This document shows, in pieces, positions 3,641-53,170 of a stretch of 64,000 bases of DNA. A model generated the notes under the pieces. The model did no database searches and was not told where the DNA came from. It saw only the letters and a program-made list of their open reading frames with translations. Made by a program: the position numbers and the translations under genes. Source of the stretch: Amphiscolops sp. MND2022 (lineage: Eukaryota); contig OZ076409.1 in NCBI GenBank assembly GCA_964187785.1, forward strand, positions 15,378,001-15,442,000, given 5' to 3'. The first letter of the stretch is position 1. Each line of letters starts with the position of its first letter.

Positions 3641-3897
3641 TTTGACATTAATCATATAGGGCAAATATTGTTGAACTATTGAATACCAAAAATTCCTTTG
3701 GACTTCGGCTTTTCCTTTTCTGGATTACTCGAAGGTCAAGACTCTAAATGCTTTTAGAAAGCAATATCCGGATGTTTTCGGAAAAGAGGCATCTACTATC
3801 ATGGATAACAGTTTGGAATTTTCTCATTCACTTTTTGATATCTCATATTTAACAAACCTCTTTAATTAGCCGCCGTAGGCGGCAGCGGGTTTGCTAG
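3640..3897 (+). mobile_element. Helitron-type 3' terminus (hairpin + CTAG), inserted before T in SL exon
   Basis: Hairpin GCCGCC-GTA-GGCGGC (3869-3883), then 10 nt, then CTAG (3894-3897), followed by TTAGGCT, the right half of the target ACAACAA|TTAGGCT. Confidence 0.8.
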
Positions 3898-4199
3898 TTA
3901 GGCTAAAAGCAACGAGTCAATTTTTGGAGCGCGAGACTCCTATCTGCGGTACGGACTTACCATTACCAGCCAACAACTTGTTTTGAGGAGAAATTCTCAT
4001 GAAAAGACGACGTTTCAAGTTATTGACATCTGATGAAACAAAAATATTCCAGAAAAATTGTGAGAAAGCAAAATTTTGACTCTATTACGAAAATGTATGC
4101 TGAAAAGCATAAATTAGTAAGCTTAAAAATGAAATTCCATGTATTATCAAAAGTCGACTCAGGAGTGTGAAAAACACGTTTTAGGGGTAATTTTGGGCC

Positions 4200-4790
4200 C
4201 TCTTTCCAATGCCGTTGTCCGTTTTTTGCTATCTGTTCATTTTGACCCCTTTTGCAAAACTGTCACCGAAGTTAAACCACATTTTGTGAAAATAGTAAAA
4301 ATGACATAACTCAATGAAAATTCAAGTGATGGCGGCGAAAATTTCAGCATGGGGGTTTTTTTGGACGCTCTTTCTAATGGCGTTGTCCGTTTTTTGCTAT
4401 CTTTTCAATTTGACCCCTTTTGCAAAACTGTCACCGAAGTTAAACCACATTTTGTGAAAATAGTAAAAATGACATAACTCAATAAAAATTCAAGTGATGG
4501 CGGCGAAAATTTCAGCATGGGGGTTTTTTGGACGCTCTTTCCAATGCCGTTGTCCGTTTTTTGCTATCTGTTCATTTTGACCCCTTTTGCAAAACTGTCA
4601 CCGAAGTTAAACCACATTTTGTGAAAATAGTAAAAATGACATAACTCAATGAAAATTCAAGTGATGGCGGCGAAAATTTCAGCATGGGGGTTTTTTGGAC
4701 GCTCTTTCCAATGCCGTTGTCCGTTTTTTGCTATCTGTTCATTTTGACCCCTTTTGCAAAACTGTCACCGAAGTTAAACCACATTTCTGA
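4200..4790. repeat. ~168-bp spacer subrepeat, expanded here (four TCACCGAAGTTAAAC motifs versus two in the standard unit)
   Basis: Motif at ~4263, 4431, 4598, 4766; only one in the next unit. Confidence 0.9.
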
Positions 4791-4796
4791 CAAAAA

Positions 4797-4915
4797 AGGC
4801 TACAACACCTGGTGTTCCCAAGCGGTCTCCCATGCAAGTACTAACCAGGCCCTTTGTTGTTTAACTTCGGTGATCGGACGAGAACCGGTGCATTCAACAT
4901 GGTATGGTCGTAGCC
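4797..4915 (-). rRNA. 5S rRNA (variant; box C TTGGATGGG changed to TTGCATGGG)
   Basis: 119-nt GGCTACGACCATACC...GTGTTGTAGCCT followed by a T-run terminator; 2 substitutions versus array consensus. Confidence 0.95.
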
Positions 4916-5007
4916 GATCATTGTAAAATCAATAGCTTTATATGCTTAACAACAAAATTACGTACGATGGTACGAAAATTTTCTCGGTCAAAATACGCGT
5001 AACTTTT

Positions 5008-5142
5008 AAGTTAGTGCAGACTAGCTTGTTCCTTGTTCAAAAATTGGGCAGCAGACCACTTTCGCAGTCTGTTTTCAAATAAAACTTATCAATAGGGTTG
5101 GAATACTTACCTATTTAATAAGTTTATCACAACAATTAGGCT
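5008..5142 (-). ncRNA. Spliced-leader (SL) RNA gene, uninterrupted
   Basis: Exon (A)GCCTAATTGTTGTGATAAACTTATTAAATAG|GTAAGT. AAACTTAT..ATAGG pairs with CCTATTGATAAGTTT across the donor. CAGAC-TGCGAAAGTG-GTCTG stem, Sm site AATTTTTG, 3' stem AAGCTAGT/ACTAACTT. Ends approximate. Confidence 0.85.
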
Positions 5143-5532
5143 AAAAGCAAAGAGTCAATTTTTGGAGCGCGAGACTCCTATCTGCGGTACGGACTTACCA
5201 TTACCAGCCAACAACTTGTTTTGAGGAGAAATTCTCATGAAAAGACGACGTTTCAAGTTATTGACATCTGATGAAACAAAAATATTCCAGAAAAATTGTG
5301 AGAAAGCAAAATTTTGACTCTATTACGAAAATGTATGCTGAAAAGCATAAATTAGTAAGCTTAAAAATGAAATTCCATGTATTATCAAAAGTCGACTCAG
5401 GAGTGTGAAAAACACGTTTTAGGGGTAATTTTGGGCCGTCTTTCCAATGCCGTTGTCCGTTTTTTGCTATCTGTTCATTTTGACCCCTTTTGCGAATTTG
5501 TCACCGAAGTTAAACCACATTTCTGACAAAAA

Positions 5533-5867: not shown

Positions 5868-6026
5868 TTAAATAAATATATAAATCAAAATCAATTTACA
5901 CTACAGCTACAAAAATTTAGCATTGTTACAAAATATTCATGGCTGACTTTTCAAAGATAATAGAAACACAGATGAAAAGAATAAAAGAATAGCATCATGA
6001 ATTTGTGTGAAGTTATCGGTCGAGAT

Positions 6027-9000
6027 TTAGACTTGGCATCGAGTTTTGATATATTTCAAGTATTTTCCTTCATATTCCGACCACGATGAAAAAAGTAATG
6101 CTACAACTAGTTTCTGGGCTAGTGGATTTTCGTTTAGCCATATGTCTTGCCAATTTCGTAGGTTAAGAAAAGTTTTGATGTTTTGGATTTTTTCACAATC
6201 AAAGAAAAGATGTTGCCAACTTTCAAATTCGGTTTCACATGCAAAAAAAAGGGGATGAGGTACCAAGTTTTGAAGCCATTTTTCCTGTTTATCAGGGTAT
6301 GCATTCATTATAAAATGATAGATATAGTTTTTGTCAAAGGACTGGAGTTGTGTATTGTTCCATAACTTTTTGACAAACAAATCCAGTATGTTTGTGTCAA
6401 TATTTTGCGAAAAGGCTGTTTTGGCAATTCTTGGCAAGCAAGATATGTTTATCAGGCTAGAATTTAGGAAATCATACACTTCTTTTGATTTCGTGTCAAC
6501 ATTTATGGTGAGATTTTGAAAAAAATAATGGAGAATGATCGTATTATCTGTATTTATAGTCATCTCAATTTTGTCTTTTTTCAGGTCACTTGTTATCATT
6601 TTTAACCATTTCGATTTTTGAAAGTTTTTTTCAGGTTCGTTTGCTAATGAAACTTTAACATTCATTATCTTAGCCACTGATACTGCTTTGTTCAAGTTTT
6701 TTTAAACCTATTCCACCATCTCTTCTTTCCGTGTGTATTACGTCTTGACTAACATTATGTTTTTTCTGTAGCCAGAAATTGTCTACCATTTTGGAATTCA
6801 ATTTTTTTCAAGAACGTCTTTAGTTGTGTAAAATGTCTTAGCTTGTATATTATTTTGGATAGAACGAAAGTTTCGATGTTGATCGCTCTGGCTCTAAATG
6901 AAGTGTTTTTATTAATGAATTTTGGAATTTGGTTGATTGCTTTCCATATTTCATTCCTAGTTTCTGGGTCCATAGTTCCTTTAGTGGTCGTTTTAACTCC
7001 GAGAATTTTCACACAGTCTACTACTTTGATCTGTCTGTTCTCATCAGTATTTGGGATTGTTCTCGTTTTTGCTAAGATCTCTGATTTGTCATAATTGATT
7101 GCTAGTCCAGTTAAAGCTTGGAATTTTTTTGGAAGATTTTTAGTAACCGATTAATTGAAGTAGCTTTCATTGCTACTGTTATATCATCCGCGTATGCAAT
7201 GACTTTTTGTTTTTGACTACTTAATATTTTCTTCGAGTTTTGAATTCTCTCTAAGAGTGGCTCCATTACCAGGTTGAAAAGTAGCGCAGATAAAGGGCAG
7301 CCTTGTCTGACACCTCTAGTGATCTCCAAAATTTCGGAAAATTCAGAATTGAAATCAATAATTGATTTGGTGTCTGCATAGAGAGTTTTTATTAGAGACA
7401 TTGTGCTATTATCAATTGCCAAGTATTCAAGCATTTTCAACATGAAATCTCTGTCTACACAGTCAAAAGCTTTTGAAAAATCAAGGGCACATAATAAATC
7501 ATCTTTTTTCAATTCTATTGAGTATTGTCTAATTTTGGTTAAAGCCGAGTGAATATCTCTTTTTGGGAAATGAGCGTATTGATGATGATTTTCGATTATT
7601 GCGTTGCAGATTGGTTTTATTCTGAACGCTAGAATATGTGAAAGAATTTTTTGATCGGAGTTAATTAAGCTTAATGGTCGAAGGTCCGACACTTTCTTTA
7701 CCATTAAAAATTTTTTGGGAATAAGTTTCATAATAGCCATATTGAAAGATGGAGGAGCCACTCCTGTTTTGATTATATCGTTGAAAACATCTGTCAAAAG
7801 CGGAACAAACAGATCAGAGTACTTTTTATAGAGGTTAGAAGTTAAGCCATCAGGACCAGGAGCACTATCTTTGTTGAGTTTGTTAATTGCTCTTTCAACT
7901 TCAAATTCCGTAATTTCTTCATGTTCTAAGTCATTTGTTTCATGAACTTGACATAATTTTTCTCGTTTTTCCTTAAAAAACATTTCCAAGAATTTATTTT
8001 GTTGTTCATCTGTTTCTTGGTTTTTTGGTCGAGCTTCAAATTGTTTAGTATAGAAGCCTACTAATTCATCAAAGATTTTGCTCTTGTCATTGATTATTGA
8101 TCCATTTGAAGCCTCAAATTCTTGTATTTTGAATTCAGGTCACCTTCATTGGCCTCCATGAAAAGGTTTTTAATTTTTTTATCTCTAATTTTGCCTCAGA
8201 CATTTTTATCTCTGAAAGCGCAGATGTTTTTGAGTCTAAAATTTCCAAAAGTTCAGATTTTTTATGAGAATCATTGGTATTTTTCATATCTGATTCTAGT
8301 TTTTCAATTTCACGTACAAGGTTTTCTTCCGTTATTACTTTTTTACGTTTTTCTTTGATACATAAGAGTCTCAGGGAGTCTCTTAGCCTAGCTTTGAAAA
8401 CATCGTATCTTTTTGACAAACTTATCGTGTTTTCCAATGCAGTCAAGCTCGTTTTCAATATTTCAGTAACAGCCTGTTTATTTTCTAGGACTGAGTCATT
8501 AAGCTTGAAGTATCCATTTTTGAAATTATTTTGGTTCCGATACAAGTGCAAAAGTTTGTGGTCGGAAAAAGGCAAAAACAGAACTGAGAGCTCTAGGTTT
8601 TGTTCATTAGAATTTAAAAAGCAATAGTCAATTCTACTATGTTTTTTAAAACGCCTATCATAATGCGTGGTACTGACTGGGATCTGCTTTTTTCCAATAT
8701 CTTTTAAAACATATTCATTTAGTTTGGTAATGATAGCTCGATGCCTCAATACTCTGATATCGTTTGACTTGACTTTTTCATTCAAATTTTCATAGTCTTC
8801 AAAGTCAATGGCATTGAAGTCACCAGCAATGATGAGATTTTGGTGGTATTCAAGATTCAATTCTTCAATGGAAGCAATGAAGTTTTCTGCTAAAGTGTCT
8901 TTTGGGTTAATATAAGTATTTACTATAGTGGTAGTTTGGTTTTCAACCGTTAGAGTGACAGTGAGACACGTATTAGTTTTTCCAATAACCTCGTATACAC

Positions 9001-9274
9001 AGTGTTCAGGAAATATTGTCATGAGACCACCTGAGTTCATTATTGCTGGTACAGTTTCATACTTCAATTTGTTAAGTTTTAAAATTTTTTCATGTTCTTT
9101 GCGTAATTTCCAAAGTTTAGTTTCTTGTATTAAAATGCAGAACGTTTTCGTCTTCCGATTTTTCTCAATTTTTTCTAAAAGCTGAATTAACTTAGTTGAA
9201 TTAGCTAGACCGCGGACGTTCACACAAAAAATTTCAATCAAATCAGCCATCAGTTTGTAAAGAGGTAGTTCCAT
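6027..9274 (-). pseudogene. ORF2: APE endonuclease + reverse transcriptase + C-terminal Cys/His motif, broken by at least 3 frameshifts
   Basis: APE motifs NVRGL, IQET, GDFN, SRIDY, SDH; RT motifs PGPDG, RPLSL, DFSKAFD, GVRQGCPLS, YADD; C-terminal ESWQHLFFDC. Confidence 0.93.
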
Positions 9275-10510
9275 TGACTTCTTTCGAAAGTTTTTCTATT
9301 TGTTTTTGCAGTTTTTTGGCTCTTTTTATTTGTTTCTTCCTGTTTGAGGAGTTTGTACTGGATTCTTCTCCAATTTCACTTCTATTTCGTTTCGTGGTTC
9401 TTGTAGTTACTTTTGTCCAATCATTAGCAGCCTCGTCTGGTTCCATATTTGTCGTTATTGTGTCATTCGTAGCTTCGGTTTGCTCGTCTTCTTCAGTATC
9501 AGAGCTAGTTTCTGAGTCTGTATGGGTGCTGCTATTTTCATCCTCCACAATTCGTAGTTTCCCTTCCTCTCTTTCCATTTCTGCAGGGTGATCAGTCTCT
9601 GGTTTTTCGATAGGTTTTGGTTTTCGGTTGATTCTACACCAGTCTTCATGGTGTCCTCGGTAGCGTTGTCTCTTCTCTTCTTTGCATTTTTGGCATTCAT
9701 GCAGAGCAGGAATGCTAGCATAGATTGGAAGCTCACACCAGTAAGCAATGTCTGAGGAAGCTCGTGCCTTTGACCAGTTTTCCAATTGTTCTTGCTCTTC
9801 GTGGTTGTTAATTTTAACCGCAATTTTAGCTTTGCCTGTGTAGAACGTGCCGAGTTCAGTTCTCTGACGTTCCCGTTGAATTTCCCCTAGTTCTGCAAAG
9901 TCAGGGACTTGCAGTAGTTCCATTAACTGCTTGTCGTCACAGAGTGCTGGCAAGTTGTTTATTCTGACGTCATGTACTTTTGGGAAGGCAGATGTCCTGA
10001 CTATCCAGGTGTCTTCAGCTGTCGGAAAAACAGTTCGATTCATAATTTTGAGTCCATTTAGCTTAATGCGAGCAACGTCTTCTTCCGCTTCGATTGGGGC
10101 GATTACCAGTAGGACCTGTAGCTTCTTTTCTCCCAGTTTCATGTTAGTTCGTGAAATTGTAATCATTTCCCGGTAACGAGGATTGAACACGCTGAGGATG
10201 TCTTTATAAGCTATTGACATTGCCGTTTCGAGAGCAGCGCCATCGGTGAAAAGTTCCTTCGTTAGTGGAGGTATAATTTTCATTTTCAGCACTTGACGAC
10301 ATGTCTGAATTCGTAAGCAATGTTGGTAACAGCTTTACTGAAGTTCATTGTTTGCGCGGTTTTTTCGGTAATTTTAGTTTCGTCAGGCTGGCGGCTAGCG
10401 AGTTTTTCCTGAGGGTTTTCCGTTGAATTCTCGTTTTCGTTTACTATCGCACAATCAGGTAAAGAGTTTATGTAATCTTGTTGTTTCTGTCTGGCAGCTT
10501 TTTCCGACAT
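9243..10510 (-). pseudogene. ORF1 (RRM-like region + CxxC..H..C zinc knuckle), one frameshift near 10290; overlaps ORF2 start by 32 bp
   Basis: VRINNLP, FYTGKAKI, CQKC..GHHEDWC motifs; position upstream of ORF2; first ATG at 10510 (MSEKAARQ). Confidence 0.8.
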
Positions 10511-10814
10511 TTTTCGTAACAATTGGTAATCGATTCAAAGTAACTGAGGTAAAAAGGAAAATAGGGAGGATTGAAGTAACTTTCGCTAGTTTCAAGAGCC
10601 TCAGAAGGGGAGAAAAAGTAAGACGAGTCTAGGGGGAAACGAACGTTCCAAGGCTTTCCACGGCCGAGGAAACGACGTTAAGACTGGTAGCGTTTTGAGG
10701 ACTGCTAACAGCCACCCGCCAAGGAAGCTTCAACTTGGTCCTCAGGCCTTTGGTCCCCATTTTGACCCCTTTTGCAAAACTGTCACCGAAGTTGAACCAC
10801 ATTTCTGACAAAAA

Positions 10815-12968: not shown

Positions 12969-14084
12969 AAAAGCAAAGAGTCAATTTTTGGAGCGCGAGA
13001 CTCCTATCTGCGGTACGGACTTACCATTACCAGCCAACAACTTGTTTTGAGGAGAAATTCTCATGAAAAGACGACGTTTCAAGTTATTGACATCTGATGA
13101 AACAAAAATATTCCAGAAAAAGTGTGAGAAAGCAAAATTTTGACTCTATTACGAAAATGTATGCTGAAAAGCATAAATTAGTAAGCTTAAAAATGAAATT
13201 CCATGTAAGCAGTTGGATTTATTAACGGACCGTGCTAAACACGGGCGGGTTTGAAATTTTACAAAATTTTTGCCAAGTCCCGGATTCGACTGGGGAACTT
13301 CAGGGAAATGGAAGTCAGGGTACAAATGTGATGAAACTCATAATTGGCATGAGATACCCAAAAAAAACTACCGAAAATATGAACACACCCCCCCTCCCCC
13401 ACTCTACATGCTTAAAAATTGAAAAATTTCAAAATTTTCAAAAATACCCGGGAATGATGCGAAACGTGCAAAAATGTTGTTAAAAGCGTGGAATCATCAA
13501 AAATGAGGGGAGAAGGGCCCTGTGAACACTTCCTTAGGGCATATAAAATCTCAAAACACGAAAAAAACAGCTAGGTTCAACTTGAGTTTTTCAGCAATTT
13601 CGAGCAAGTTTTGACCGTGGAAAAGAATTAAATTAAGTTATTAGAAATAAACCCCGTGAACACTTCCTGAGGACATATAAAATCTCAAAAATGGAAAAAA
13701 ATCTGAAACACACTCGGATCAACCTGGAACTTTTTCACAATTCGGTACATGTTTCTGACCGTGAAAGACAACTAAAATCAAATTTTAAGAGATATTTTTT
13801 TTTCTGTAGACCTCATTTCACCGGCAGTCATTCATCCGAAATAAGAAACCCAAGTTCAATAGTGCCCATGACTTGTCAACTCATTTTATACCGCTGACTG
13901 AGTACCTATGAATCGATGCAAAGCCGGATTATGCAAAGTTTGATATGAAGCAATTTATGGTGTTTATTGCACATGACGAAGTCAATGTGCATCGCAGTCC
14001 AGCTAAGAAAGTTTTTTTTTGTAGCCAACACATAATAAGCCAGTAGCCAACTTCATAATAAGCCCCTTTTAGAGAAAAGCCAAA

Positions 14085-14155
14085 ACCCCAGAGAGATTCG
14101 AACCTGCAGCCTCCCGATTGCGCGGCATAAGTGTTAACCACTGTGCCATAAGGAC
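14085..14155 (-). other. tRNA-like / SINE-head segment (left arm)
   Basis: GTCCTTATGGCACAGTGG (box A) ... GGTTCGAATC (box B); degenerate stems. Confidence 0.6.
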
Positions 14156-14448
14156 GTTATTGAATAAAGTTGAACTGTTGAATATATACGCATGCTATTA
14201 AAATAATATATATACGCATATTAAAATAATCGTTGTCTTCGTCATGTGTTGCGAAGCACCGCTTCGCCTCTGTGTACATATCCATACTGAGCAAAGAAGG
14301 TAAATTTGTTGAAACTCTATAACCCTGAAAAGCTTGTCTTCGACCATGAATTTTATGTAAGTCATGTTTATGCAGTTGTTTATGAAATGGAAACAGACTT
14401 ATCGAACAAGGATAACTATAGTAATTGCTTCCAGTATTCATGAAAAAA

Positions 14449-40594: not shown

Positions 40595-42575
40595 TTTAAA
40601 GAATTTATTGAAAACTGAGAATTTACAAGTAAAAAGTAATGAAGTCTAAGGTATATGTATAAAATGAGTATATGAGTAACTGAAGTGTTGAAAAAGCTGA
40701 AGTATGTAGATGAAGATGCTTGGTTATGGCATTTTTGAGAAAGCGCCAAAATGGGAATGTTTTTTTTTGGTATGAAGTTAGTATAATGAAGTTTGGAGAA
40801 TGTATGAAAAAAAGAAGTTTGCTCCTGGAAGGAGTTTGTTCTCAAAACCCGTTTTTTGCATACCGGTTACGAACAACTAGTGCTCGAAAAGAATTGGGAA
40901 TTGGGTTGATTGATGATGGTATTGTAGAGATTTAGAACTTTAAAGTTCCAGTCAAAAAGGTCCGAAATTTTTCAGTTTAGTTTTTGTTTTCATTGTATAG
41001 GTTTTCAACTGCAGTGAAAACTTGTACAATTTTATTCTCCAGATTAATAGTGTAAATTTGGTGGTTTGTAGCATCATAGAATGGATCAAACTTCCGGATC
41101 AATGAGTAAAATTCAAAATGAGAAGTTAAAATAGTGTTAGAGTCAGAATGTTTCCAGTTTGATTCAGATAAAAGATCTTCGAGTTTTTCTTTCTTCAGTG
41201 GTTGTACGAGTGAAAAGGTCCTTTCAATTTTCTTTTCCTTGTCTAGTGTATTGATGTAGCCAGAAGTTTGTTGGGTTTTGATCACATGTTCTTTTATAGG
41301 AGGTATTTCGTTGAAAATAGTTTCGGGTGCCAGTATTTTGTTTTGTTTCTTTTCCAAAAAGAATGGGTATTCATGATATCCATGCTTTGCCGTTGACTGT
41401 TGGTCATCTGCTTGATTTCGGGCAAGGTCTGTTGAGGATTCCCATTCAGTTGAGCGATGTATTAGTTTAGGTTTTTGCATAGGAATGGTATCTTTCTTTG
41501 AGTTGTTAATGCATGGTTGTTCAGTTTCTGCCACGTTGTTATTGCATTCGGTTTCAGTACCATCATCGGTCTGCTTTGGCGCCTTTGAGATTGGTTCAGC
41601 ATCATCTGAATCTGACAGTTCAGGTTCATTAGACATTGGCTCTGTTTCTGCAGTTTCCATAACGTAGTCAGTTGTTAACTTCTGGTTCTGAGATTCACTG
41701 TTTTTCTGTATTTGCTGTTCGTCTGATAGTTGTTTTGGGCATCTTGATTGTTGATAAGCACTGGGAAGGTTCTCATTGACGCATAAAGAGCATTCGAGAA
41801 GTGGGATACAGCAACATTTGAAAAAAATGCCACTGGAACTAAACATTTTGTCATATGCATTATTGGCCCAGTTTTGTAGTAAGCTTTTCTCATTCTCATT
41901 GTCAATTAAAACTATAATTTTTGCCTCTCCTGTATAAAAAAGGCTGCTATCAGGAAGTCGTCGTTGTTGATGAAAAATTTTGCTACTAAATTTGAAGTTT
42001 TGAAGACCACAGCTACTCAAAATATCCTCATCCGTCAGAAAGTGTGGTAGGTTTCGGAAAGATATTGGTAATCTTTTTGGATAGACATTGTTGTTCGGGT
42101 TGGAATAATTGACAGAATAAGGCCGTATTTTCCGATTGCGAAGAGTAATGCCCTCGTGAATAAGAGAGGAAGCTGCATTTTCAAGTTTGTAAGGAATGAT
42201 CACAGTAATACACTTCAAATTGCCTTTGTTGCGTAAAATTGTAGTTTTGAAGATGGTAATTTCATTGGAGATAAGTCGGTTTTTGACGGCCATAACAGCT
42301 TCCACAAACATTGAATCCAGTAATTTGCTGTTTTTGAACATTTCAGATGTCAGTGGTAAGGCAAAGTTGATAATAATTGGTAATTTGTCCATATTTGAGT
42401 TCGATTTCGACAAGGAAATAACTGCATTTTTGTAACAATTTTGCTCAACATTTTCATTATGATGTTGATCAAGCTCACTCGTGTTCAAATTAGTCATTAC
42501 TTTTGCAACTTTTGCTGCAAAATTTGCAAGATGGCGCTGTGCAAACAAAGTTTGCAGGCTGACAGAGTAACGCCG
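40595..42575 (-). mobile_element. Element A, copy 4
   Basis: Same termini and TSD. Confidence 0.9.
40977..42497 (-). CDS. ORF1-like protein A4 (zinc-knuckle His changed to Tyr)
   Basis: Intact ORF; PSAYQQSRC. Confidence 0.85.
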   Translation of the reverse strand: MTNLNTSELDQHHNENVEQNCYKNAVISLSKSNSNMDKLPIIINFALPLTSEMFKNSKLLDSMFVEAVMAVKNRLISNEITIFKTTILRNKGNLKCITVIIPYKLENAASSLIHEGITLRNRKIRPYSVNYSNPNNNVYPKRLPISFRNLPHFLTDEDILSSCGLQNFKFSSKIFHQQRRLPDSSLFYTGEAKIIVLIDNENEKSLLQNWANNAYDKMFSSSGIFFKCCCIPLLECSLCVNENLPSAYQQSRCPKQLSDEQQIQKNSESQNQKLTTDYVMETAETEPMSNEPELSDSDDAEPISKAPKQTDDGTETECNNNVAETEQPCINNSKKDTIPMQKPKLIHRSTEWESSTDLARNQADDQQSTAKHGYHEYPFFLEKKQNKILAPETIFNEIPPIKEHVIKTQQTSGYINTLDKEKKIERTFSLVQPLKKEKLEDLLSESNWKHSDSNTILTSHFEFYSLIRKFDPFYDATNHQIYTINLENKIVQVFTAVENLYNENKN

Positions 42576-43151
42576 TATCACAACAATTAGGCTAAAAGCA
42601 AAGAGTCAATTTTTGGAGCGCGAGACTCCTATCTGCGGTACGGACTTACCATTACCAGCCAACAACTTGTTTTGAGGAGAAATTCTCATGAAAAGACGAC
42701 GTGTCAAGTTATTGACATCTGATGAAACAAAAATATTCCAGAAAAATTGTGAGAAAGCAAAATTTTGACTCTATTACGAAAATGTATGCTGAAAAGCATA
42801 AATTAGTAAGCTTAAAAATGAAATTCCATGTATTATCAAAAGTCGACTCAGGAGTGTGAAAAACACGTTTTAGGGGTAATTTTGGGCCCTCTTTCCAATG
42901 CCGTTGTCCGTTTTTTGCTATCTGTTCATTTTGACCTCTTTTGCAAAACTGTCACCAAAGTTAAACCACATTTTGTGAAAATAGTAAAAATGACATAACT
43001 CAATGAAAATTCAAGTGATGGCGGCGAAAATTTCAGCATGGGGGTTTTTTTGGACGCTCTTTCCAATGCCGTTGTCCGTTTTTTGCTATCTGTTGCTTTT
43101 GACCCCTTTTGCGAAACTGTCACCGAAGTTAAACCACATTTCTGACAAAAA

Positions 43152-43270
43152 AGGCTACAACACCTGGTGTTCCCAAGCGGTCTCCCATCCAAGTACTAAC
43201 CAGGCCCTATGTTGTTTAACTTCGGTGATCGGACGAGAACCGGTGCATTCAACATGGTATGGTCGTAGCC
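43152..43270 (-). rRNA. 5S rRNA
   Basis: Consensus copy. Confidence 0.97.
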
Positions 43271-43362
43271 GATCATTGTAAAATCAATAGCTTTATATGC
43301 TTAACAACAAAATTACGTACAATGATACGAAAATTTTCTCGGTCAAAATACGCGTAACTTTT

Positions 43363-43497
43363 AAGTTAGTGCAGACTAGCTTGTTCCTTGTTCAAAAATT
43401 GGGCAGCAGACCACTTTCGCAGTCTGCTTTCAAATAAAACTTATCAATTGGGTTGGAATACTTACCTATTTATTAAGTTTATCACAACAATTAGGCT
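43363..43497 (-). ncRNA. SL RNA coding sequence downstream of A5
   Basis: Same architecture, 2 substitutions. Confidence 0.8.
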
Positions 43498-45479
43498 TTT
43501 AAAGAATTTATTGAAAACTGAGAATTTACAAGTAAAAAGTAATGAAGTCTAAGGTATATGTATAAAATGAGTATATGAGTAACTGAAGTGTTGAAAGAGC
43601 TGAAGTATGTAGATGAAGATGCTTGGTTATGGCATTTTTGAGAAAGCGCCAAAATGGGAATTGTTTTTTTTTGGTATGAAGTTAGTATAATGTAGTTTGG
43701 AGAATGTATGAAAAAAAGATGTTTGCTCCTGGAAGGAGTTTGTTCTCAAAACCCGTTTTTTGCATACAGGTTGCGAACAACTAGTGCTCGAAAAGAATTG
43801 GGAATTGGGTTGATTGATGGTGGTATTGTAGAGATTTAGAACTTTAAAGTTCCAGTCAAAAAGGTCCGAAGTTTTTCAGTTTAGTTTTTGTTTTCATTGT
43901 ATAAGTTTTCAACTGCAGTGAAAACTTGTACAATTTTATTCTCCAGATTAATAGTGTAAATTTGGTGGTTTGTAGCATCATAGAATGGATCAAACTTCCG
44001 GATCAATGAGTAAAATTCAAAATGAGAAGTTAAAATAGTGTTAGAGTCAGAATGTTTCCAGTTTGATTCAGATAAAAGATCTTCGAGTTTTTCTTTCTTC
44101 AGTGGTTGTACGAGTGAAAAGGTTCTTTGAATTCTCTTTTCCTTGTCTAGTGTATTGATGTAGCCAGAAGTTTGTTGGGTTTTGATCACATGTTCTTTTA
44201 TAGGAGGTATTTCGTTGAAAATAGTTTCGGGTGCCAGTATTTTGTTTTGTTTCTTTTCCAAAAAGAATGGGTATTCATGATATCCATGCTTTGCCGTTGA
44301 CTGTTGGTCATCTGCTTGGTTTCGGGCAAGGTCTGTTGAGGATTCCCATTCAGTTGAGCGATGCATTAGTTTAGGTTTTTGCATAGGAATGGTATCTTTC
44401 TTTGAGTTGTTAATGCATGGTTGTTCAGTTTCTGCCACGTTGTTATTGCATTCGGTTTCAGTACCATCATCGGTCTGCTTTGGCGCCTTTGAGATTGGTT
44501 CAGCATCATCTGAATCTGACAGTTCAGGTTCATTAGACATTGGCTCTGTTTCTGCAGTTTCCATAACGTAGTCAGTTGTTAACTTCTGGTTCTGAGATTC
44601 ACTGTTTTTCTGTATTTGCTGTTCGTCTGATAGTTGTTTTGGGCATCTTGATTGTTGATGAGCACTGGGAAGGTTCTCATTGACGCATAAAGAGCATTCG
44701 AGGAGTGGGATACAGCAACATTTGAAAAAAATGCCACTGGAACTAAACATTTTGTCATATGCATTATTGGCCCAGTTTTGTAGTAAACTTTCCTCATTCT
44801 CATTGTCAATTAAAACTGTAATTCTTGCCTCTCCTGTATAAAAAAGGCTGCTATCAGGAAGTCGTCGTTGTTGATGAAAAATTTTGCTACTAAATTTGAA
44901 GTTTTGAAGACCACAGCTACTCAAAATATCCTCATCCGTCAGAATGTGTGGTAGGTTTCGGAAAGATATTGGTAATCTTTTTGGATAGACATTGTTGTTC
45001 GGGTTGGAATAATTGACAGAATAAGGCCGTATTTTCCGATTGCGAAGAGTAATGCCCTCGTGAATAAGAGAGGAAGCTGCATTTTCAAGTTTGTAAGGAA
45101 TGATCACAGTAATACACTTCAAATTGCCTTTGTTGCGTAAAATTGTAGTTTTGAAGATGGTAATTTCATTGGAGTTAAGTCGGTTTTTGACGGCCATAAC
45201 AGCTTCCACAAACATTGAATCCAGTAATTTGCTGTTGTTGAACATTTCAGATGTCAGTGGTAAGGCAAAGTTGATAATAATTGGTAATTTGTCCATATTT
45301 GAGTTCGATTTCGACAAGGAAATAACTGCATTTTTGTAACAATTTTGCTCAACATTTTCATTATGATGTTGATCAAGCTCACTCGTGTTCAAATTAGTCA
45401 TTACTTTTGCAACTTTTGCTGCAAATTTTGCAAGATGGCGCTGTGCAAACAAAGTTTGCAGGCTGACAGAGTAACGCCG
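43498..45479 (-). mobile_element. Element A, copy 5 (tandem trimer)
   Basis: Separated from A6 only by the 18-bp TSD 45480-45497. Confidence 0.9.
43881..45401 (-). CDS. ORF1-like protein A5
   Basis: Intact ORF. Confidence 0.85.
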   Translation of the reverse strand: MTNLNTSELDQHHNENVEQNCYKNAVISLSKSNSNMDKLPIIINFALPLTSEMFNNSKLLDSMFVEAVMAVKNRLNSNEITIFKTTILRNKGNLKCITVIIPYKLENAASSLIHEGITLRNRKIRPYSVNYSNPNNNVYPKRLPISFRNLPHILTDEDILSSCGLQNFKFSSKIFHQQRRLPDSSLFYTGEARITVLIDNENEESLLQNWANNAYDKMFSSSGIFFKCCCIPLLECSLCVNENLPSAHQQSRCPKQLSDEQQIQKNSESQNQKLTTDYVMETAETEPMSNEPELSDSDDAEPISKAPKQTDDGTETECNNNVAETEQPCINNSKKDTIPMQKPKLMHRSTEWESSTDLARNQADDQQSTAKHGYHEYPFFLEKKQNKILAPETIFNEIPPIKEHVIKTQQTSGYINTLDKEKRIQRTFSLVQPLKKEKLEDLLSESNWKHSDSNTILTSHFEFYSLIRKFDPFYDATNHQIYTINLENKIVQVFTAVENLYNENKN

Positions 45480-45497
45480 TATCACAACAATTAGGCT

Positions 45498-47477
45498 TTT
45501 AAAGAATTTATTGAAAACTGAGAATTTACAAGTAAAAAGTAATGAAGTCTAAGGTATATGTATAAAATGAGTATATGAGTAACTGAAGTGTTGAAAAAGC
45601 TGAAGTATGTAGATGAAGATGCTTGGTTATGGCATTTTTGAGAAAGCGCCAAAATGGGAATGTTTTTTTTGGTATGAAGTTAGTATAATGTAGTTTGGAG
45701 AATGTATGAAAAAAAGAAGTTTGCTCCTGGAAGGAGTTTGTTCTCAAAACCCGTTTTTTGCATACCGGTTACGAACAACTAGTGCTCGAAAAGAATTGGG
45801 AATTGGGTTGATTGATGATGGTATTGTAGAGATTTAGAACTTTAAAGTTCCAGTCAAAAAGGTCCGAAATTTTTCAGTTTAGTTTTTGTTTTCATTGTAT
45901 AAGTTTTCAACTGCAGTGAAAACTTGTACAATTTTATTCTCCAGATTAATAGTGTAAATTTGGTGGTTTGTAGCATCATAGAATGGATCAAACTTCCGGA
46001 TCAATGAGTAAAATTCAAAATGAGAAGTTAAAATAGTGTTAGAGTCAGAATGTTTCCAGTTTGATTCAGATAAAAGATCTTCGAGTTTTTCTTTCTTCAG
46101 TGGTTGTACGAGTGAAAAGGTCCTTTGAATTTTCTTTTCCTTGTCTAGTGTATTGATGTAGCCAGAAGTTTGTTGGGTTTTGATCACATGTTCTTTTATA
46201 GGAGGTATTTCGTTGAAAATAGTTTCGGGTGCCAGTATTTTGTTTTGTTTCTTTTCCAAAAAGAATGGGTATTCATGATATCCATGCTTTGCCGTTGACT
46301 GTTGGTCATCTGCTTGATTTCGGGCAAGGTCTGTTGAGGATTTCCATTCAGTTGAGCGATGCATTAGTTTAGGTTTTTGCATAGGAATGGTATCTTTCTT
46401 TGAGTTGTTAATGCATGGTTGTTCAGTTTCTGCCACGTTGTTATTGCATTCGGTTTCAGTACCATCATCGGTCTGCTTTGGCGCCTTTGAGATTGGTTCA
46501 GCATCATCTGAATCTGACAGTTCAGGTTCATTAGACATTGGCTCTGTTTCTGCAGTTTCCATAACGTAGTCAGTTGTTAACTTCTGGTTCTGAGATTCAC
46601 TGTTTTTCTGTATTTGCTGTTCGTCTGATAGTTGTTTTGGGCATCTTGATTGTTGATGAGCACTGGGAAGGTTCTCATTGACGCATAAAGAGCATTCGAG
46701 GAGTGGGATACAGCAACATTTGAAAAAAATGCCACTGGAACTAAACATTTTGTCATATGCATTATTGGCCCAGTTTTGTAGTAAACTTTCCTCATTCTCA
46801 TTGTCAATTAAAACTGTAATTCTTGCCTCTCCTGTATGAAAAAGGCTGCTATCAGGAAGTCGTCGTTGTTGATGAAAAATTTTGCTACTAAATTTGAAGT
46901 TTTGAAGACCACAGCTACTCAAAATATCCTCATCCGTCAGAAAGTGTGGTAGGTTTCGGAAAGATATTGGTAATCTTTTTGGATAGACATTGTTGTTCGG
47001 GTTGGAATAATTGACAGAATAAGGCCGTATTTTCCGATTGCGAAGAGTAATGCCCTCGTGAATAAGAGAGGAAGCTGCATTTTCAAGTTTGTAAGGAATG
47101 ATCACAGTAATACACTTCAAATTGCCTTTGTTGCGTAAAATTGTAGTTTTGAAGATGGTAATTTCATTGGAGTTAAGTCGGTTTTTGACGGCCATAACAG
47201 CTTCCACAAACATTGAATCCAGTAATTTGCTGTTGTTGAACATTTCAGATGTCAGTGGTAAGGCAAAGTTGATAATAATTGGTAATTTGTCCATATTTGA
47301 GTTCGATTTCGACAAGGAAATAACTGCATTTTTGTAACAATTTTGCTCAACATTTTCATTATGATGTTGATCAAGCTCACTCGTGTTCAAATTAGTCATT
47401 ACTTTTGCAACTTTTGCTGCAAATTTTGCAAGATGGCGCTGTGCAAACAAAGTTTGCAGGCTGACAGAGTAACGCCG
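45498..47477 (-). mobile_element. Element A, copy 6 (tandem trimer)
   Basis: TSDs 45480-45497 and 47478-47495. Confidence 0.9.
45879..47399 (-). CDS. ORF1-like protein A6
   Basis: Intact ORF. Confidence 0.85.
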   Translation of the reverse strand: MTNLNTSELDQHHNENVEQNCYKNAVISLSKSNSNMDKLPIIINFALPLTSEMFNNSKLLDSMFVEAVMAVKNRLNSNEITIFKTTILRNKGNLKCITVIIPYKLENAASSLIHEGITLRNRKIRPYSVNYSNPNNNVYPKRLPISFRNLPHFLTDEDILSSCGLQNFKFSSKIFHQQRRLPDSSLFHTGEARITVLIDNENEESLLQNWANNAYDKMFSSSGIFFKCCCIPLLECSLCVNENLPSAHQQSRCPKQLSDEQQIQKNSESQNQKLTTDYVMETAETEPMSNEPELSDSDDAEPISKAPKQTDDGTETECNNNVAETEQPCINNSKKDTIPMQKPKLMHRSTEWKSSTDLARNQADDQQSTAKHGYHEYPFFLEKKQNKILAPETIFNEIPPIKEHVIKTQQTSGYINTLDKEKKIQRTFSLVQPLKKEKLEDLLSESNWKHSDSNTILTSHFEFYSLIRKFDPFYDATNHQIYTINLENKIVQVFTAVENLYNENKN

Positions 47478-47495
47478 TATCACAACAATTAGGCT

Positions 47496-49475
47496 TTTAA
47501 AGAATTTATTGAAAACTGAGAATTTACAAGTAAAAAGTAATGAAGTCTAAGGTATATGTATAAAATGAGTATATGAGTAACTGAAGTGTTGAAAAAGCTG
47601 AAGTATGTAGATGAAGATGCTTGGTTATGGCATTTTTGAGAAAGCGCCAAAATGGGAATGTTTTTTTTGGTATGAAGTTAGTATAATGTAGTTTGGAGAA
47701 TGTATGAAAAAAAGAAGTTTGCTCCTGGAAGGAGTTTGTTCTCAAAACCCGTTTTTTGCATACCGGTTACGAACAACTAGTGCTCGAAAAGAATTGGGAA
47801 TTGGGTTGATTGATGATGGTATTGTAGAGATTTAGAACTTTAAAGTTCCAGTCAAAAAGGTCCGAAATTTTTCAGTTTAGTTTTTGTTTTCATTGTATAA
47901 GTTTTCAACTGCAGTGAAAACTTGTACAATTTTATTCTCCAGATTAATAGTGTAAATTTGGTGGTTTGTAGCATCATAGAATGGATCAAACTTCCGGATC
48001 AATGAGTAAAATTCAAAATGAGAAGTTAAAATAGTGTTAGAGTCAGAATGTTTCCAGTTTGATTCAGATAAAAGATCTTCGAGTTTTTCTTTCTTCAGTG
48101 GTTGTACGAGTGAAAAGGTCCTTTGAATTTTCTTTTCCTTGTCTAGTGTATTGATGTAGCCAGAAGTTTGTTGGGTTTTGATCACATGTTCTTTTATAGG
48201 AGGTATTTCGTTGAAAATAGTTTCGGGTGCCAGTATTTTGTTTTGTTTCTTTTCCAAAAAGAATGGGTATTCATGATATCCATGCTTTGCCGTTGACTGT
48301 TGGTCATCTGCTTGATTTCGGGCAAGGTCTGTTGAGGATTTCCATTCAGTTGAGCGATGCATTAGTTTAGGTTTTTGCATAGGAATGGTATCTTTCTTTG
48401 AGTTGTTAATGCATGGTTGTTCAGTTTCTGCCACGTTGTTATTGCATTCGGTTTCAGTACCATCATCGGTCTGCTTTGGCGCCTTTGAGATTGGTTCAGC
48501 ATCATCTGAATCTGACAGTTCAGGTTCATTAGACATTGGCTCTGTTTCTGCAGTTTCCATAACGTAGTCAGTTGTTAACTTCTGGTTCTGAGATTCACTG
48601 TTTTTCTGTATTTGCTGTTCGTCTGATAGTTGTTTTGGGCATCTTGATTGTTGATGAGCACTGGGAAGGTTCTCATTGACGCATAAAGAGCATTCGAGGA
48701 GTGGGATACAGCAACATTTGAAAAAAATGCCACTGGAACTAAACATTTTGTCATATGCATTATTGGCCCAGTTTTGTAGTAAACTTTCCTCATTCTCATT
48801 GTCAATTAAAACTGTAATTCTTGCCTCTCCTGTATGAAAAAGGCTGCTATCAGGAAGTCGTCGTTGTTGATGAAAAATTTTGCTACTAAATTTGAAGTTT
48901 TGAAGACCACAGCTACTCAAAATATCCTCATCCGTCAGAAAGTGTGGTAGGTTTCGGAAAGATATTGGTAATCTTTTTGGATAGACATTGTTGTTCGGGT
49001 TGGAATAATTGACAGAATAAGGCCGTATTTTCCGATTGCGAAGAGTAATGCCCTCGTGAATAAGAGAGGAAGCTGCATTTTCAAGTTTGTAAGGAATGAT
49101 CACAGTAATACACTTCAAATTGCCTTTGTTGCGTAAAATTGTAGTTTTGAAGATGGTAATTTCATTGGAGTTAAGTCGGTTTTTGACGGCCATAACAGCT
49201 TCCACAAACATTGAATCCAGTAATTTGCTGTTTTTGAACATTTCAGATGTCAGTGGTAAGGCAAAGTTGATAATAATTGGTAATTTGTCCATATTTGAGT
49301 TCGATTTCGACAAGGAAATAACTGCATTTTTGTAACAATTTTGCTCAACATTTTCATTATGATGTTGATCAAGCTCACTCGTGTTCAAATTAGTCATTAC
49401 TTTTGCAACTTTTGCTGCAAAATTTGCAAGATGGAGCTGTGCAAACAAAGTTTGCAGGCTGACAGAGTAACGCCG
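47496..49475 (-). mobile_element. Element A, copy 7 (tandem trimer)
   Basis: TSDs 47478-47495 and 49476-49493. Confidence 0.9.
47877..49397 (-). CDS. ORF1-like protein A7
   Basis: Intact ORF. Confidence 0.85.
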   Translation of the reverse strand: MTNLNTSELDQHHNENVEQNCYKNAVISLSKSNSNMDKLPIIINFALPLTSEMFKNSKLLDSMFVEAVMAVKNRLNSNEITIFKTTILRNKGNLKCITVIIPYKLENAASSLIHEGITLRNRKIRPYSVNYSNPNNNVYPKRLPISFRNLPHFLTDEDILSSCGLQNFKFSSKIFHQQRRLPDSSLFHTGEARITVLIDNENEESLLQNWANNAYDKMFSSSGIFFKCCCIPLLECSLCVNENLPSAHQQSRCPKQLSDEQQIQKNSESQNQKLTTDYVMETAETEPMSNEPELSDSDDAEPISKAPKQTDDGTETECNNNVAETEQPCINNSKKDTIPMQKPKLMHRSTEWKSSTDLARNQADDQQSTAKHGYHEYPFFLEKKQNKILAPETIFNEIPPIKEHVIKTQQTSGYINTLDKEKKIQRTFSLVQPLKKEKLEDLLSESNWKHSDSNTILTSHFEFYSLIRKFDPFYDATNHQIYTINLENKIVQVFTAVENLYNENKN

Positions 49476-50051
49476 TATCACAACAATTAGGCTAAAAGCA
49501 AAGAGTCAATTTTTGGAGCGCGAGACTCCTATCTGCGGTACGGACTTACCATTACCAGCCAACAACTTGTTTTGAGGAGAAATTCTCATGAAAAGACGAC
49601 GTTTCAAGTTATTGACATCTGATGAAACAAAAATATTCCAGAAAAATTGTGAGAAAGCAAAATTTTGACTCTATTACGAAAATGTATGCTGAAAAGCATA
49701 AATTAGTAAGCTTAAAAATGAAATTCCATGTATTATCAAAAGTCGACTCAGGAGTGTGAAAAACACGTTTTAGGGGTAATTTTGGGCCTTCTTTCCAATG
49801 CCGTTGTCCGTTTTTTGCTATCTGTTCATTTTGACCCCTTTTGCAAAACTGTCACCGAAGTTAAACCACATTTTGTGAAAATAGTAAAAATGACATAACT
49901 CAATGAAAATTCAAGTGATGGCGGCGAAAATTTCAGCATGGGGGTTTTTTTGGACGCTCTTTCTAATGGCGTTGTCCGTTTTTTGCTATCTTTTCAATTT
50001 GACCCCTTTTGCAAAACTGTCACCGAAGTTAAACCACATTTCCGACAAAAA

Positions 50052-50170
50052 AGGCTACAACACCTGGTGTTCCCAAGCGGTCTCCCATCCAAGTACTAAC
50101 CAGGCCCTATGTTGTTTAACTTCGGTGATCGGACGAGAACCGGTGCATTCAACATGGTATGGTCGTAGCC
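50052..50170 (-). rRNA. 5S rRNA
   Basis: Consensus copy. Confidence 0.97.
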
Positions 50171-50262
50171 GATCATTGTAAAATCAATAGCTTTATATGC
50201 TTAACAACAAAATTACGTACAATGATACGAAAATTTTCTCGGTCAAAATACGCGTAACTTTT

Positions 50263-50398
50263 AAGTTAGTGCAGACTAGCTTGTTCCTTGTTCAAAAAAT
50301 TGGGCAGCAGACCACTTTCGCAGTCTGCTTTCAAATAAAACTCATCAATAGGGTTGGAATACTTACATATTTAATAAGTTTATCACAACAATTAGGCT
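50263..50398 (-). ncRNA. SL RNA coding sequence downstream of B1; exon end mutated AG| to AT|
   Basis: acttacatat instead of acttacctat. Confidence 0.7.
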
Positions 50399-51351
50399 TT
50401 TAAAGATTGTATTGGACCTTTTAATGTATAAATCAAATAGTCTTTATAGTAAGTCTAAGTATAAATTGTATAAAAGATATAAACGGTATAAAAGGTGTAC
50501 AGAGTACTGTATAAGAGTATGAAAAAGTACTGAGTGAAAAATGGAAGCTTGTTTGAAAGTTCAGGCAAAAAAGAACGTTGTTTTTTTGAAGAAATTAGTA
50601 TAATGTAGTCTTGAGTATGTGGGGTAAAAGTGATGTTTGCTCCTGGATGGAGTTATTGGATCAAACTGTTTTTTGGCTTTTTTAATAGCATGGTATTGAA
50701 CTTTACAAGACTTGGGATTTGAGGGTGTAGCATATCAAGGAGTGGGTTTTGAGTTATTTGTGTTGTTACAAAAAATAGCATCAATCTTGTTTTTCAAATG
50801 GGATAAAGTCATATCTAACTTTTCCTTGGAGATTTACTAAATAAATGATGTTCTCGGGTTTGTAAAAGAAGGCATCCAGTCTTCCTTTGATGTATTTGAA
50901 GGCATCGTAGTTGGCGATCTTTGAAGAGGAGGTTCGGCTTCTCCACTCTTTGTCTTCAAACATCTCTTGTTGTGCTGATTCCGATAGTTTTTGGACATAT
51001 CTTAGTTGGTTAACAACAACTTTTTTATCGTTAATGATGTTGATATCACCTCCTTTGTGATCACATTCTGCTAGTTTAGGATATTTTGATTCCATTCTGT
51101 TGACAGTTTGAATAATTTCGTTGTCCACATCGAGGTAAAACGGTAAAAAAGCAAAATCGGGATCCACTTTCGTGGCTTTGTTTTCAGGTTCATCAGCTGA
51201 CTCCTCCTCCTCCTCAGAAGGTATTGGCTCAGTATCTTCATTGCTAAGATTGTTTTTTTGTGTAGAGTGATGTTTGCATTGCTTCTTATGATGGCCCATA
51301 AATTGGCGTTTTCCTTCGTTACAATTCTCACATTTTACAATGTGTTATTGT
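50399..51351 (-). mobile_element. ORF1-only element B, 5'-truncated copy
   Basis: TSD 50381-50398 and 51352-51369; matches the 3' ~935 bp of B2; ORF remnant 50781-51334. Confidence 0.9.
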
Positions 51352-51369
51352 TATCACAACAATTAGGCT

Positions 51370-52988
51370 TTTAAAGATTGTATTGGACCTTTTATTGTAT
51401 AAATCAAATAGTCTTTATAGTAAGTCTAAGTATAAATTGTATAAAAGATATAAACGGTATAAAAGGTGTACAGAGTACTGTATAAGAGTATGAAAAAGTA
51501 CTGAGTGAAAAATGGAAGCTTGTTTGAAAGTTCAAGCAAAAAAGAACGTTGTTTTTTTTGAAGAAATTAGTATAATGTAGTCTTGAGTATGTGGGGTAAA
51601 AATGATGTTTGCTCCTGGATGGAGTTATTGGATCAAACTGTTTTTTGGCTATTTTAATAGCATGGTATTGAACTTTAAAAGACTTGGGATTTGAGGGTGT
51701 AGCATATCAAGGAGTGGGTTTTGAGTTATTTGTGTTTGTTACAAAAAATAGCATCAATCTTGTTTTTCAAATGGGATAAAGTCATATCTAACTTTTCCTT
51801 GGAGATTTACTAAATAAATGATGTTCTCGGGTTTGTAAAAGAAGGCATCCAGTCTTCCTTTGATGTATTTGAAGGCATCGTAGTTGGCGATCTTTGAAGA
51901 GGAGGTTCGGCTTCTCCACTCTTTGTCTTCAAACATCTCTTGTTGTGCTGATTCCGATAGTTTTTGGACATATCTTAGTTGGTTAACAACAACTTTTTTT
52001 ATCGTTAATGATGTTGATATCACCTCCTTTGTGATCACATTCTGCTAGTTTAGGATATTTTGATTCCATTCTGTTGACAGTGTGAATAATCTCGTTGTCC
52101 ACATCGAGGTAAAACGGTAAAAAAGCAAAATCGGGATCCACTTTCGTGGCTTTGTTTTCAGGTTCATCAGCTGACTCCTCCTCCTCAGAAGGTATTGGCT
52201 CAGCATCTTCATTGCTAAGATTGTTTTTTTGTGTAGAGTGATGTTTGCATTGCTTCTTATGATGGCCCATAAATTGGCGTTTTCCTTCGTTACAATTCTC
52301 ACATTGTAACAAGGTTTGAATGTAACATTTGAAGGGAATTTCATTAGTAACAAACTGGTTCAAAAAGGCTTGTTGGTTCCATGATTTGATGTTTTCTAAT
52401 TGGCATTGATTGGCAATCTCTATTTCAGCATAACAGATTCCAGTAAAGGCTTCGATGTCGTCAGAAATTCTTACTCTTTGGTGGCGTAATTTGGAAATTT
52501 TGTACTCTTGCAGATTACAAGCCTCCACAATCTCTCCATCTTCTAAAAAGTGTGGTAAATTGCGGAATTTCAAAGTGAATTGCTTTGGGTAGGAGTTAGA
52601 ACAAACATCACTGTTTTGGAATGCATAAATTATCCGGTTTTTGTAAGGAATTCCTTTAAGAAGTAGGTTTTTGAAGTCGTTTTCTATCGAGTTTGGAGCA
52701 ATAATTTTGATGCATTCAAGCTTCTTTTCATGCTCATGCGCTGGCGCATGTTTGGACACGTACGATTTAATGCATGTCACGCTGTCAATATGAGTAGGCG
52801 ATAAAGCATGTAAAAGCTTGCAAAGGAATTCTTTGTAAACAGCTTGCTTTATGTTTGGGCTGGTAATTTCTTCTTTTGTGTAAGGAATGATGAATTCTGC
52901 TGTCAATAAAGGCATTGTTCAGGTAATTTTCGTCTTCTCTGCCGCAGCAGTGAGAGTAGAGTTAGCAAATAATCGCTGACACACGCAG
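51370..52988 (-). mobile_element. ORF1-only element B, full-length copy (~1.6 kb)
   Basis: Left TSD complete; right TSD (52989-52999) cut by the Helitron-type 5' end. Confidence 0.88.
51754..52915 (-). pseudogene. ORF1-like protein B (~386 aa), one +1 frameshift in a T-run near 51995
   Basis: LKFRNLPHFL, FTG, LLQCENC..GHHKKQC. The truncated copy B1 has 6 T and reads through where B2 has 7 T. Confidence 0.82.
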
Positions 52989-52999
52989 TATCACAACAA

Positions 53000-53170
53000 T
53001 CATATACATATATAAAGGGAGACCGGACAAATTCGCTGATTGGTTGAGATACGCTCGGTGATACGCGCTGCTGCAAAACAGTTCAAAAGAAGATTCCGAG
53101 GTACGCTGTAAGAAAATATGTTGCTGACTTTCGAAATAGACGACGTTTCAGATTATCCAGCTCTAATCAA
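53000..53170 (+). mobile_element. Helitron-type 5' terminus (A|TC...) in SL exon
   Basis: ATCACAACAA|TCATATACATATATAAAGGGAG: TC start after host A, followed by a TATA-rich tract. Confidence 0.75.

Follow-up and report, generated by a model that had tools for sequence, protein, structure and literature searches.

Helitrons are known to need only an AT step for insertion, and strict specificity for multicopy RNA genes is known, from the published passages cited here, for retrotransposons that lack long terminal repeats (non-LTR) and for a few DDE and tyrosine-recombinase transposons. A stretch of 64,000 nucleotides from the acoel Amphiscolops sp. MND2022 (the window, C1:15378001-15442000; all C1 positions below are coordinates of the same contig) raises the question of whether a Helitron can also be bound to one site. 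In the window a tandem array of 5S and spliced-leader (SL) RNA genes, with 12 5S genes, has a satellite block on each side, and both blocks meet SL exon sequence at the same A/T step. The answer proposed here, with good though incomplete confidence, is that the blocks belong to a Helitron family whose intact ends lie nearly all at one SL A/T step, which its RepHel transposase has recognised repeatedly.

Two Helitrons at the borders of a 5S/SL array

The features on which the argument depends are as follows.

1-3897, plus strand: 3' part of the left Helitron (14,272 bp in total, 5' end at C1:15367626), with a tRNA-like satellite interior of 446-bp period here
3869-3897, plus strand: 3' terminus of the left Helitron, with a 6-bp GC hairpin (3869-3883) and CTAG (3894-3897)
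3898-3910, minus strand: interrupted SL exon, its 5' part (likely nt 1-13); the SL upstream region comes next on the plus strand
4797-50170, minus strand: 5S/SL tandem array with a unit of ~904-905 bp and 12 5S genes, broken up by other mobile elements
5035-5148, minus strand: intact SL RNA gene (an empty target), with exon 5148-5111, donor AG/GTAAGT and a stem-loop
5035-5048, minus strand: Sm-type site of the intact SL gene, whose target step lies between 5135 and 5136
52990-52999, minus strand: donor-side 10 nt of the target, ATCACAACAA, left of the right Helitron's insertion
53000-64000, plus strand: 5' part of the right Helitron (37,131 bp in total, autonomous type), with a TC start and a satellite interior
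C1:15468130, plus strand: 3' end of the right Helitron, hairpin and CTAG, then TCAGGCTAAAAGC

Both borders were found on re-reading where a preliminary description of this DNA had placed them: on the left a GCCGCC-GTA-GGCGGC hairpin (3869-3883), CTAG (3894-3897) and then TTAGGCT, and on the right ATCACAACAA (52990-52999) followed by TCATATACATATATAAAGGG from 53000, the satellite block opening with TCATATACATATAT directly after ATCACAACAA. That description regarded the borders as Helitron ends, with which the termini, the RepHel gene and the A/T step without a target-site duplication (TSD) agree, and the opposite termini that it proposed to look for outside the window are present, 10,375 bp before it and 26,130 bp after it. 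Its view of the satellites as interiors of non-autonomous Helitrons holds for their being interiors and for the left element, in whose 14,272 bp no RepHel match was found, and fails for the right element, which carries a RepHel gene. The idea that the two host halves join to restore an SL exon needed recasting: the halves at the window's borders flank two different elements, and the half at 52990 is not the 3' part of an SL gene but the 5'-end TSD of an ORF1-only retroelement of 1.6 kb; it is the flanks of each paired element that restore the exon.

Paired elements number 13 (6.2-37.1 kb, on contigs C1, C12, C13 and C917, where the surrounding sequence was searched), and five of them lie on C1, with lengths of 6.2, 15.1, 21.4, 14.3 and 37.1 kb and intervals of 13.3, 1.8, 2.7 and 49.1 kb. 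The left and right elements of the window align at only ~51% over their last 250 bp, with flanks 99% alike, and are assigned from this comparison to different subfamilies. The preliminary description had offered amplification of a >50-kb unit of Helitron plus 5S/SL array as an alternative; the identical step at both borders would fit it, but along C1 the elements vary in length, spacing, cargo and subfamily. Because lengths and spacers are unequal over the flanking 136 kb, and two subfamilies occupy 99%-identical flanks, this alternative was rejected and its probability is negligible.

All 13 elements contain copies of the 5S/SL spacer repeat at 70-81% identity, which suggests long residence in the arrays. 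The interior satellite (1-3600 and 53160-64000) has tRNA-like A/B-box motifs together with degenerate 5S/SL spacer repeats; the A-boxes (10-70 per element) are all on the element's top strand, and ARAGORN predicted 0 tRNAs in the Helitron-interior satellites. A 15.8-kb tandem duplication inside the right element (C1:15446910) is possibly an aborted rolling-circle product; at its junction the start of the first large RepHel exon is joined to the element's own 5' end through TCAT microhomology.

The spliced-leader gene as target

The SL RNA gene has a GT donor and an Sm-type site (AATTTTTGA), and over 31 nt its minus-strand exon does not differ from the leader reconstructed earlier for the acoel Symsagittifera roscoffensis, as given in the cited passage (PMC9911081). 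The same source puts the chromosome number of that species at 2n = 20, and the assembly analysed here contains at least 13 contigs of chromosome scale. Positions 5111-5148 are covered by contigs from two RNA runs of one study, which continue beyond 5111 into unrelated sequence. Among 54 public contigs with the leader, 39 end 13 nt or less from the match, most with unrelated 3' partners, in keeping with a leader carried at the 5' ends of diverse mRNAs, and three terminate precisely at ...AAAAGC. Because of the RNA coverage of 5111-5148 and the three contigs ending at AAAAGC, the exon is probably 38 nt long and the insertion step 13/14. The preliminary description had proposed repeated hits at position 7/8; the reuse of one SL step stands, with a numbering that depends on the leader start, and whatever that start the step is 25 nt upstream of the SL splice donor. 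A plus-strand Sm-RNA reading of the locus was dropped because the RNA evidence agrees with the minus strand. A search of Rfam gave no SL match for the gene, and its predicted fold was no better than those of shuffled sequences (z-score -0.72). One public contig (L201), which likely comes from a related acoel, holds an SL gene whose exon is identical and whose upstream sequence is not.

The window contains 18 intact copies of ATCACAACAATTAGGCT. In the genome searched (G000, one acoel assembly of 1.07 Gb) there are 1,155 exact empty target sites and 460 dispersed intron-less copies of the SL exon, the latter likely retrocopies of trans-spliced RNAs. Several dispersed copies have common downstream sequence, which suggests SL-capped mobile elements.

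Site specificity across the genome

A pattern search with the 3' motif (0-1 mismatch) returned 17 matches, the same 17 that were found by alignment, and 16 of these have CTAG, in keeping with the CTRR end of Helitrons, followed by TTAGGCT (12 exactly and 4 with one mismatch). The 5' motif (0-1 mismatch) gave 18 matches, of which 16 start with TC after [AG]TCACAACAA and the remaining two are an internal duplication and an unrelated repeat; thus counted over family motifs alone, 16 of 17 are preceded by [AG]TCACAACAA, and the 16 intact 5' ends begin with TCAT. Recurring at this rate on both sides, the junction at the window's borders is no chance match, and the tabulation of flanks that had been proposed as a check places nearly all family termini at the SL step and not at unrelated AT sites: 32 of 34 end motifs are there (the other two being in array spacer and inside a copy), and all the junctions are antisense to the SL gene and without TSD. 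Each of the 13 paired elements rejoins to an empty SL exon (10 exactly, 3 with one mismatch). The 905-bp unit has 63 AT steps, and the step itself (AA^TT) is symmetric, with A/T on both strands; one step and one orientation are used in 32/32 intact junctions. The features of canonical Helitrons that can be read from sequence are all found: the elements start with 5'-TC, carry a hairpin that stands 10 nt ahead of CTAG, are inserted without TSD between A and T and, in the right element, have RepHel inside the termini.

Looser searches did not extend the family. Among 42 two-mismatch matches to the 5' motif, 17 were examined along with the single one-mismatch match outside the family, and none resembled the family (six belonged to a LINE-like repeat with coding sequence, the other 12 to an unrelated short one); the 3' motif had 10 two-mismatch matches (36 for a control pattern), and the two examined both lacked hairpin-CTAG. 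No other Helitron family was found at the SL step, 13/13 CTRR/SL junctions belonging to this one; 58 SL/TC matches were obtained, and the 30 examined comprised five of this family, the rest being SL variants, dispersed SL copies or chance. The Helitron junction was absent from the 54 public leader-bearing contigs, which are from related species, and none was seen when three runs were compared with one SL unit, a comparison that carries no weight.

The RepHel transposase

C1:15462755-15467776, plus strand: RepHel exons, inside the right element (C1:15431000-15468130)

The RepHel model consists of nine exons, drawn from tblastn matches and splice signals and joined at 8 GT-AG introns, and gives a predicted open reading frame of 1,420 codons with a stop only at the end. 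It has an HUH motif (VVEFQKRGLPHAH) and a Y2 motif (KHLYLYITK), and the right element's exons match the Pfam domains Helitron_like_N, PIF1 and Pif1_2B (PF14214, PF05970, PF21530). The N-terminus is zinc-finger-like and is preceded by an RGRPR motif, which we take to be AT-hook-like and which has a counterpart in 0/52 comparable database RepHels. The helicase exon of the family was found at four places in the genome, each of them within an SL unit or next to one. Elsewhere in the genome the nearest RepHels are dispersed and have 35% identity, the SL-core motif is missing from 14 of 15 loci that belong to other RepHel families, and the closest database RepHels, among the matches listed, are 35-43% identical. 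One RepHel copy is apparently still intact in the genome.

Repeated insertion or an inherited site

Repeated targeted insertion at the SL step is likely on comparison of the copies, because element and flank trees conflict, near-identical copies lie in diverged flanks, and two insertions fell within the TSDs of retroelements. Copies were compared with one another and with neighbouring array units, as had been suggested earlier. Over 2-7.7 kb the RepHel-type copies of C1, C12 and C13 agree at 99.0-99.6%, their 3' flanks at only 88-93%. Among 117 empty units the best match to the flank is in the copy's own region for 12 of 16 copies (one tie); of the remaining four, three come within 0.4 points and one within 1.9 points of it. 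Four C1 neighbours form one flank clade (support 99/98), whereas the element tree, most of whose other branches lack resolution, places C1_c as the sister of a C12 copy (96/95); between C1_b and the C917 and C12 copies there are differences at 5-7 of ~700 sites, against 16 between C1_b and C1_c. The similarity of elements shows no correlation with that of their flanks (Mantel r = 0.06, p = 0.26). Each of the four combinations of subfamily and flank occurs, with diagnostic sites ~22 nt apart across the junction.

On the 5' side, two young copies adjoin two different retroelements, in whose 5' TSDs they lie and which have only TATCACAACAA (11 nt) in common there; one of these copies is at the right border of the window.

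51370-52989, minus strand: ORF1-only retroelement B, in the SL exon, with the right Helitron in its 5' TSD

A pre-existing Helitron would have prevented the retroelement from making that TSD across it. On this comparative evidence the insertions would be independent.

Alternatively, one ancient chance insertion might have been spread by unequal exchange, ectopic recombination or array-carrying circles, with later conversion of flanks, so that the site was inherited. The copies are indeed confined to 5S/SL arrays, and these turn over; three of those on C1 stand only 1.8-2.7 kb from one another, all 13 elements hold old spacer-derived sequence, and Helitrons can transduce 3' flanks, according to the cited passage (PMC4778049). 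This course of events would, however, require repeated exchanges within ~22 nt of the 3' junction and, for the two retroelement-flanked copies, within 11 nt of the 5' junction; it conflicts with the discordant trees, and leaves unexplained the persistence of an intact 8-intron RepHel and the lack of any copy outside arrays. It is accordingly judged unlikely.

Several observations weigh against targeted reinsertion by an active RepHel. The data come from a single assembly of one species, and no de novo insertion was seen. Because turnover of the arrays is able to copy insertions and to convert flanks, the independent events are fewer than 16-17 and the Fisher tests given below overstate significance, and C917 may be a haplotype of C12. 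The 17th 3' end is fused to array spacer, and there are damaged ends (one 5' end truncated into the exon, one hairpin-less end, two truncated 3' ends on C2, and one divergent 5'-like end that follows a (TTCA)n tract inside another copy), all of them within arrays. Two of the three full-length RepHel copies are frameshifted (by a 4-bp insertion and a 1-bp deletion), and the splice model and start codon are predictions from sequence alone. The ratio of nonsynonymous to synonymous differences (pN/pS) against older RepHel fragments is 0.48-0.57 (p 0.03-0.065, in three non-independent pairs), weak support for sustained RepHel activity. No targeting domain was found: the N-terminal exon had no Pfam match, and the AT-hook-like candidate is a lead of only five residues.

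Recognition of the target

Helraiser transposes, as described in the cited passage (PMC4778049), by peeling off its top strand, which becomes a circle and is then joined in between an A and a T. By analogy, the top strand of the present Helitrons may peel off as a circle and be joined into a nick between A and T in the SL template strand, which, as read from the sequence, is the receiving strand at these insertions; non-autonomous copies would be moved in trans by RepHel. The site might be chosen by a protein that reads the SL gene's first ~25 nt asymmetrically, with the promoter-side bases (TTAGGCTAAAAGC) among them, perhaps with the assistance of the N-terminal RGRPR motif; this is the weakest part of the scheme. 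The gain to the element would be a safe haven of >1,100 redundant targets. Direct readout by RepHel is favoured because the position is base-exact, and takes about half of the confidence placed in repeated targeting. On the donor side, bases more than 11 nt from the step are dispensable, since the two TSD insertions share only 11 nt there. Promoter-side bases seem to be needed: in the arrays 0/26 promoter-less sites are occupied versus 16/133 promoter-bearing ones (Fisher p = 0.049, the counts not being independent), and no family end is found at dispersed SL copies, 460 of which are empty (Fisher p = 0.005, likewise with non-independent counts).

Targeting could instead be indirect, with RepHel tethered to the SL promoter, its initiation complex or a 5S/SL nuclear focus and inserting a fixed distance away, where transcription has opened the DNA. 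The promoter side is kept at all 16 intact 3' junctions, the 26 promoter-less array sites and the dispersed copies are unoccupied, and the interiors carry one-strand A-box-like motifs along with the 5S/SL spacer copies; HUH nucleases, moreover, cut single-stranded DNA according to the cited passage (PMC4778049). Tethered elements such as TRE5-A and Tf1, however, land near fixed positions and not at them, as their published summary has it (PMC3706591), whereas here the position is base-exact with a single orientation in 32/32 junctions, and the inserted strand would be the template strand and not the exposed one. Tethering is possible, though we consider it the less probable course. Only 46 of the 460 dispersed copies extend 9 nt past the step, and for this reason readout and tethering are inseparable in these data.

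Elements of the IS200/IS605 group find their target by pairing of a guide in their own DNA. A comparable candidate lies at bases +37 to +52 (CTGATTGGTTGAGATA), which might pair with the target strand across the step: in three of four 5' ends tested, they agree with the nicked strand's complement at 13 of 16 positions and span the step. However, the match is not significant against shuffles (p = 0.12-0.16) and is lost in a divergent C2 copy (p = 0.49), and no target 12-mer occurs in any of the 13 elements; the guide is not supported and is very improbable. CTGATTGG is also an inverted CCAAT box.

From sequence comparison this is likely a strictly site-specific HUH Helitron. It would recognise ~25-30 bp where the SL gene starts and insert 6-37 kb of cargo there in one orientation, by means of an intact transposase.

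Comparison with other Helitrons and target-specific elements

Helraiser/Helibat1 and the wheat Xuan-Feng elements have the same 5'-TC, hairpin ~11 nt before CTAG-3' and A/T insertion without TSD, a RepHel with zinc-finger-like N-terminus, HUH, Y2 and PIF1, and non-autonomous partners (PMC4778049, PMC13286980), and the gene of wheat Feng8 is likewise split by introns (PMC13286980), as far as the cited passages describe them. The difference is in the target: Helraiser made 1,751 de novo insertions genome-wide, needing only AT in AT-rich DNA (PMC4778049), and Xuan/Feng likewise favour AT (PMC13286980), whereas the SL family uses one step of one gene. The passages cited give Helitron targets as AT or TT steps (PMC4778049, PMC13286980, PMC3706591, PMC8869645, PMC13565253, PMC7175516, bioRxiv 10.1101/2022.12.15.520654). 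A site-specific Helitron was not found in the literature among the matches listed, Repbase Reports and most subscription papers being outside the search.

Target-specific DNA transposons named in the cited passages are Pokey, Dada and CryptonV, which likewise find a safe haven in RNA genes of many copies or in repeats, with exact insertion sites in the case of Dada (PMC3706591, PMC8869645). They differ in having DDE or tyrosine-recombinase enzymes; Dada has a DDE transposase and makes 6-7-bp TSDs, and the SL family has RepHel and no TSD. The same passages list no HUH element among target-specific transposons and give SL exons as targets only of non-LTR retrotransposons (PMC3706591, PMC8869645). 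IS91, IS200/IS605 and Replitron-1, so far as described, have HUH chemistry and orientation-specific insertion in common with the SL family but use motifs of 2-5 nt scattered through genomes, not one gene site. Adeno-associated virus Rep at AAVS1 is another site-selective HUH system. The SL-specific non-LTR retrotransposons, NeSL-1 and CRE/SLACS, also target the SL exon, and such retroelements are present in this array, but they have an RNA intermediate, a target duplication and an unrelated enzyme.

If the present interpretation is correct, this would be the first strictly site-specific Helitron, and the HUH rolling-circle class would join the target-specific elements of multicopy RNA genes. 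How a transposing Helitron captures its target is poorly understood, and an open RepHel and a fixed site would make this step directly testable; more speculatively, the system may point to a way of integrating large cargo in a set orientation with no double-strand break.

Other mobile elements in the array

At least three other mobile families use the acoel SL exon, which may make it a compact system for the study of competition for a safe haven. Two families of ORF1-only non-autonomous retroelements (31887-49476 and 50399-52989, minus strand), some head-to-tail, are ~1.98 kb with a 542-codon frame and ~1.62 kb, respectively, lie in the SL exon with 17-19-nt TSDs, and occur also in C12, C13, C917 and the public contigs L184 and L193. 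A long interspersed nuclear element (LINE; 5868-10757, minus strand) has ORF1, apurinic/apyrimidinic endonuclease and reverse transcriptase in split frames; its 3' end lies 4 nt away from the Helitron step, within the SL exon, its 5' end is joined to spacer, and 67-84% relatives occur in SL arrays on C1, C2, C12 and C13. Upstream of an SL gene, a 17.1-kb element (13208-30319) consists of ~7.4-kb inverted arms, 96-99% alike, around a central open reading frame that by eye we take to be TRAF/MATH-like; its open reading frames had no significant Pfam matches. A small palindrome marks its left end (13208-13274), and the open reading frames of its arms contain an HUH-like HYHVL motif.

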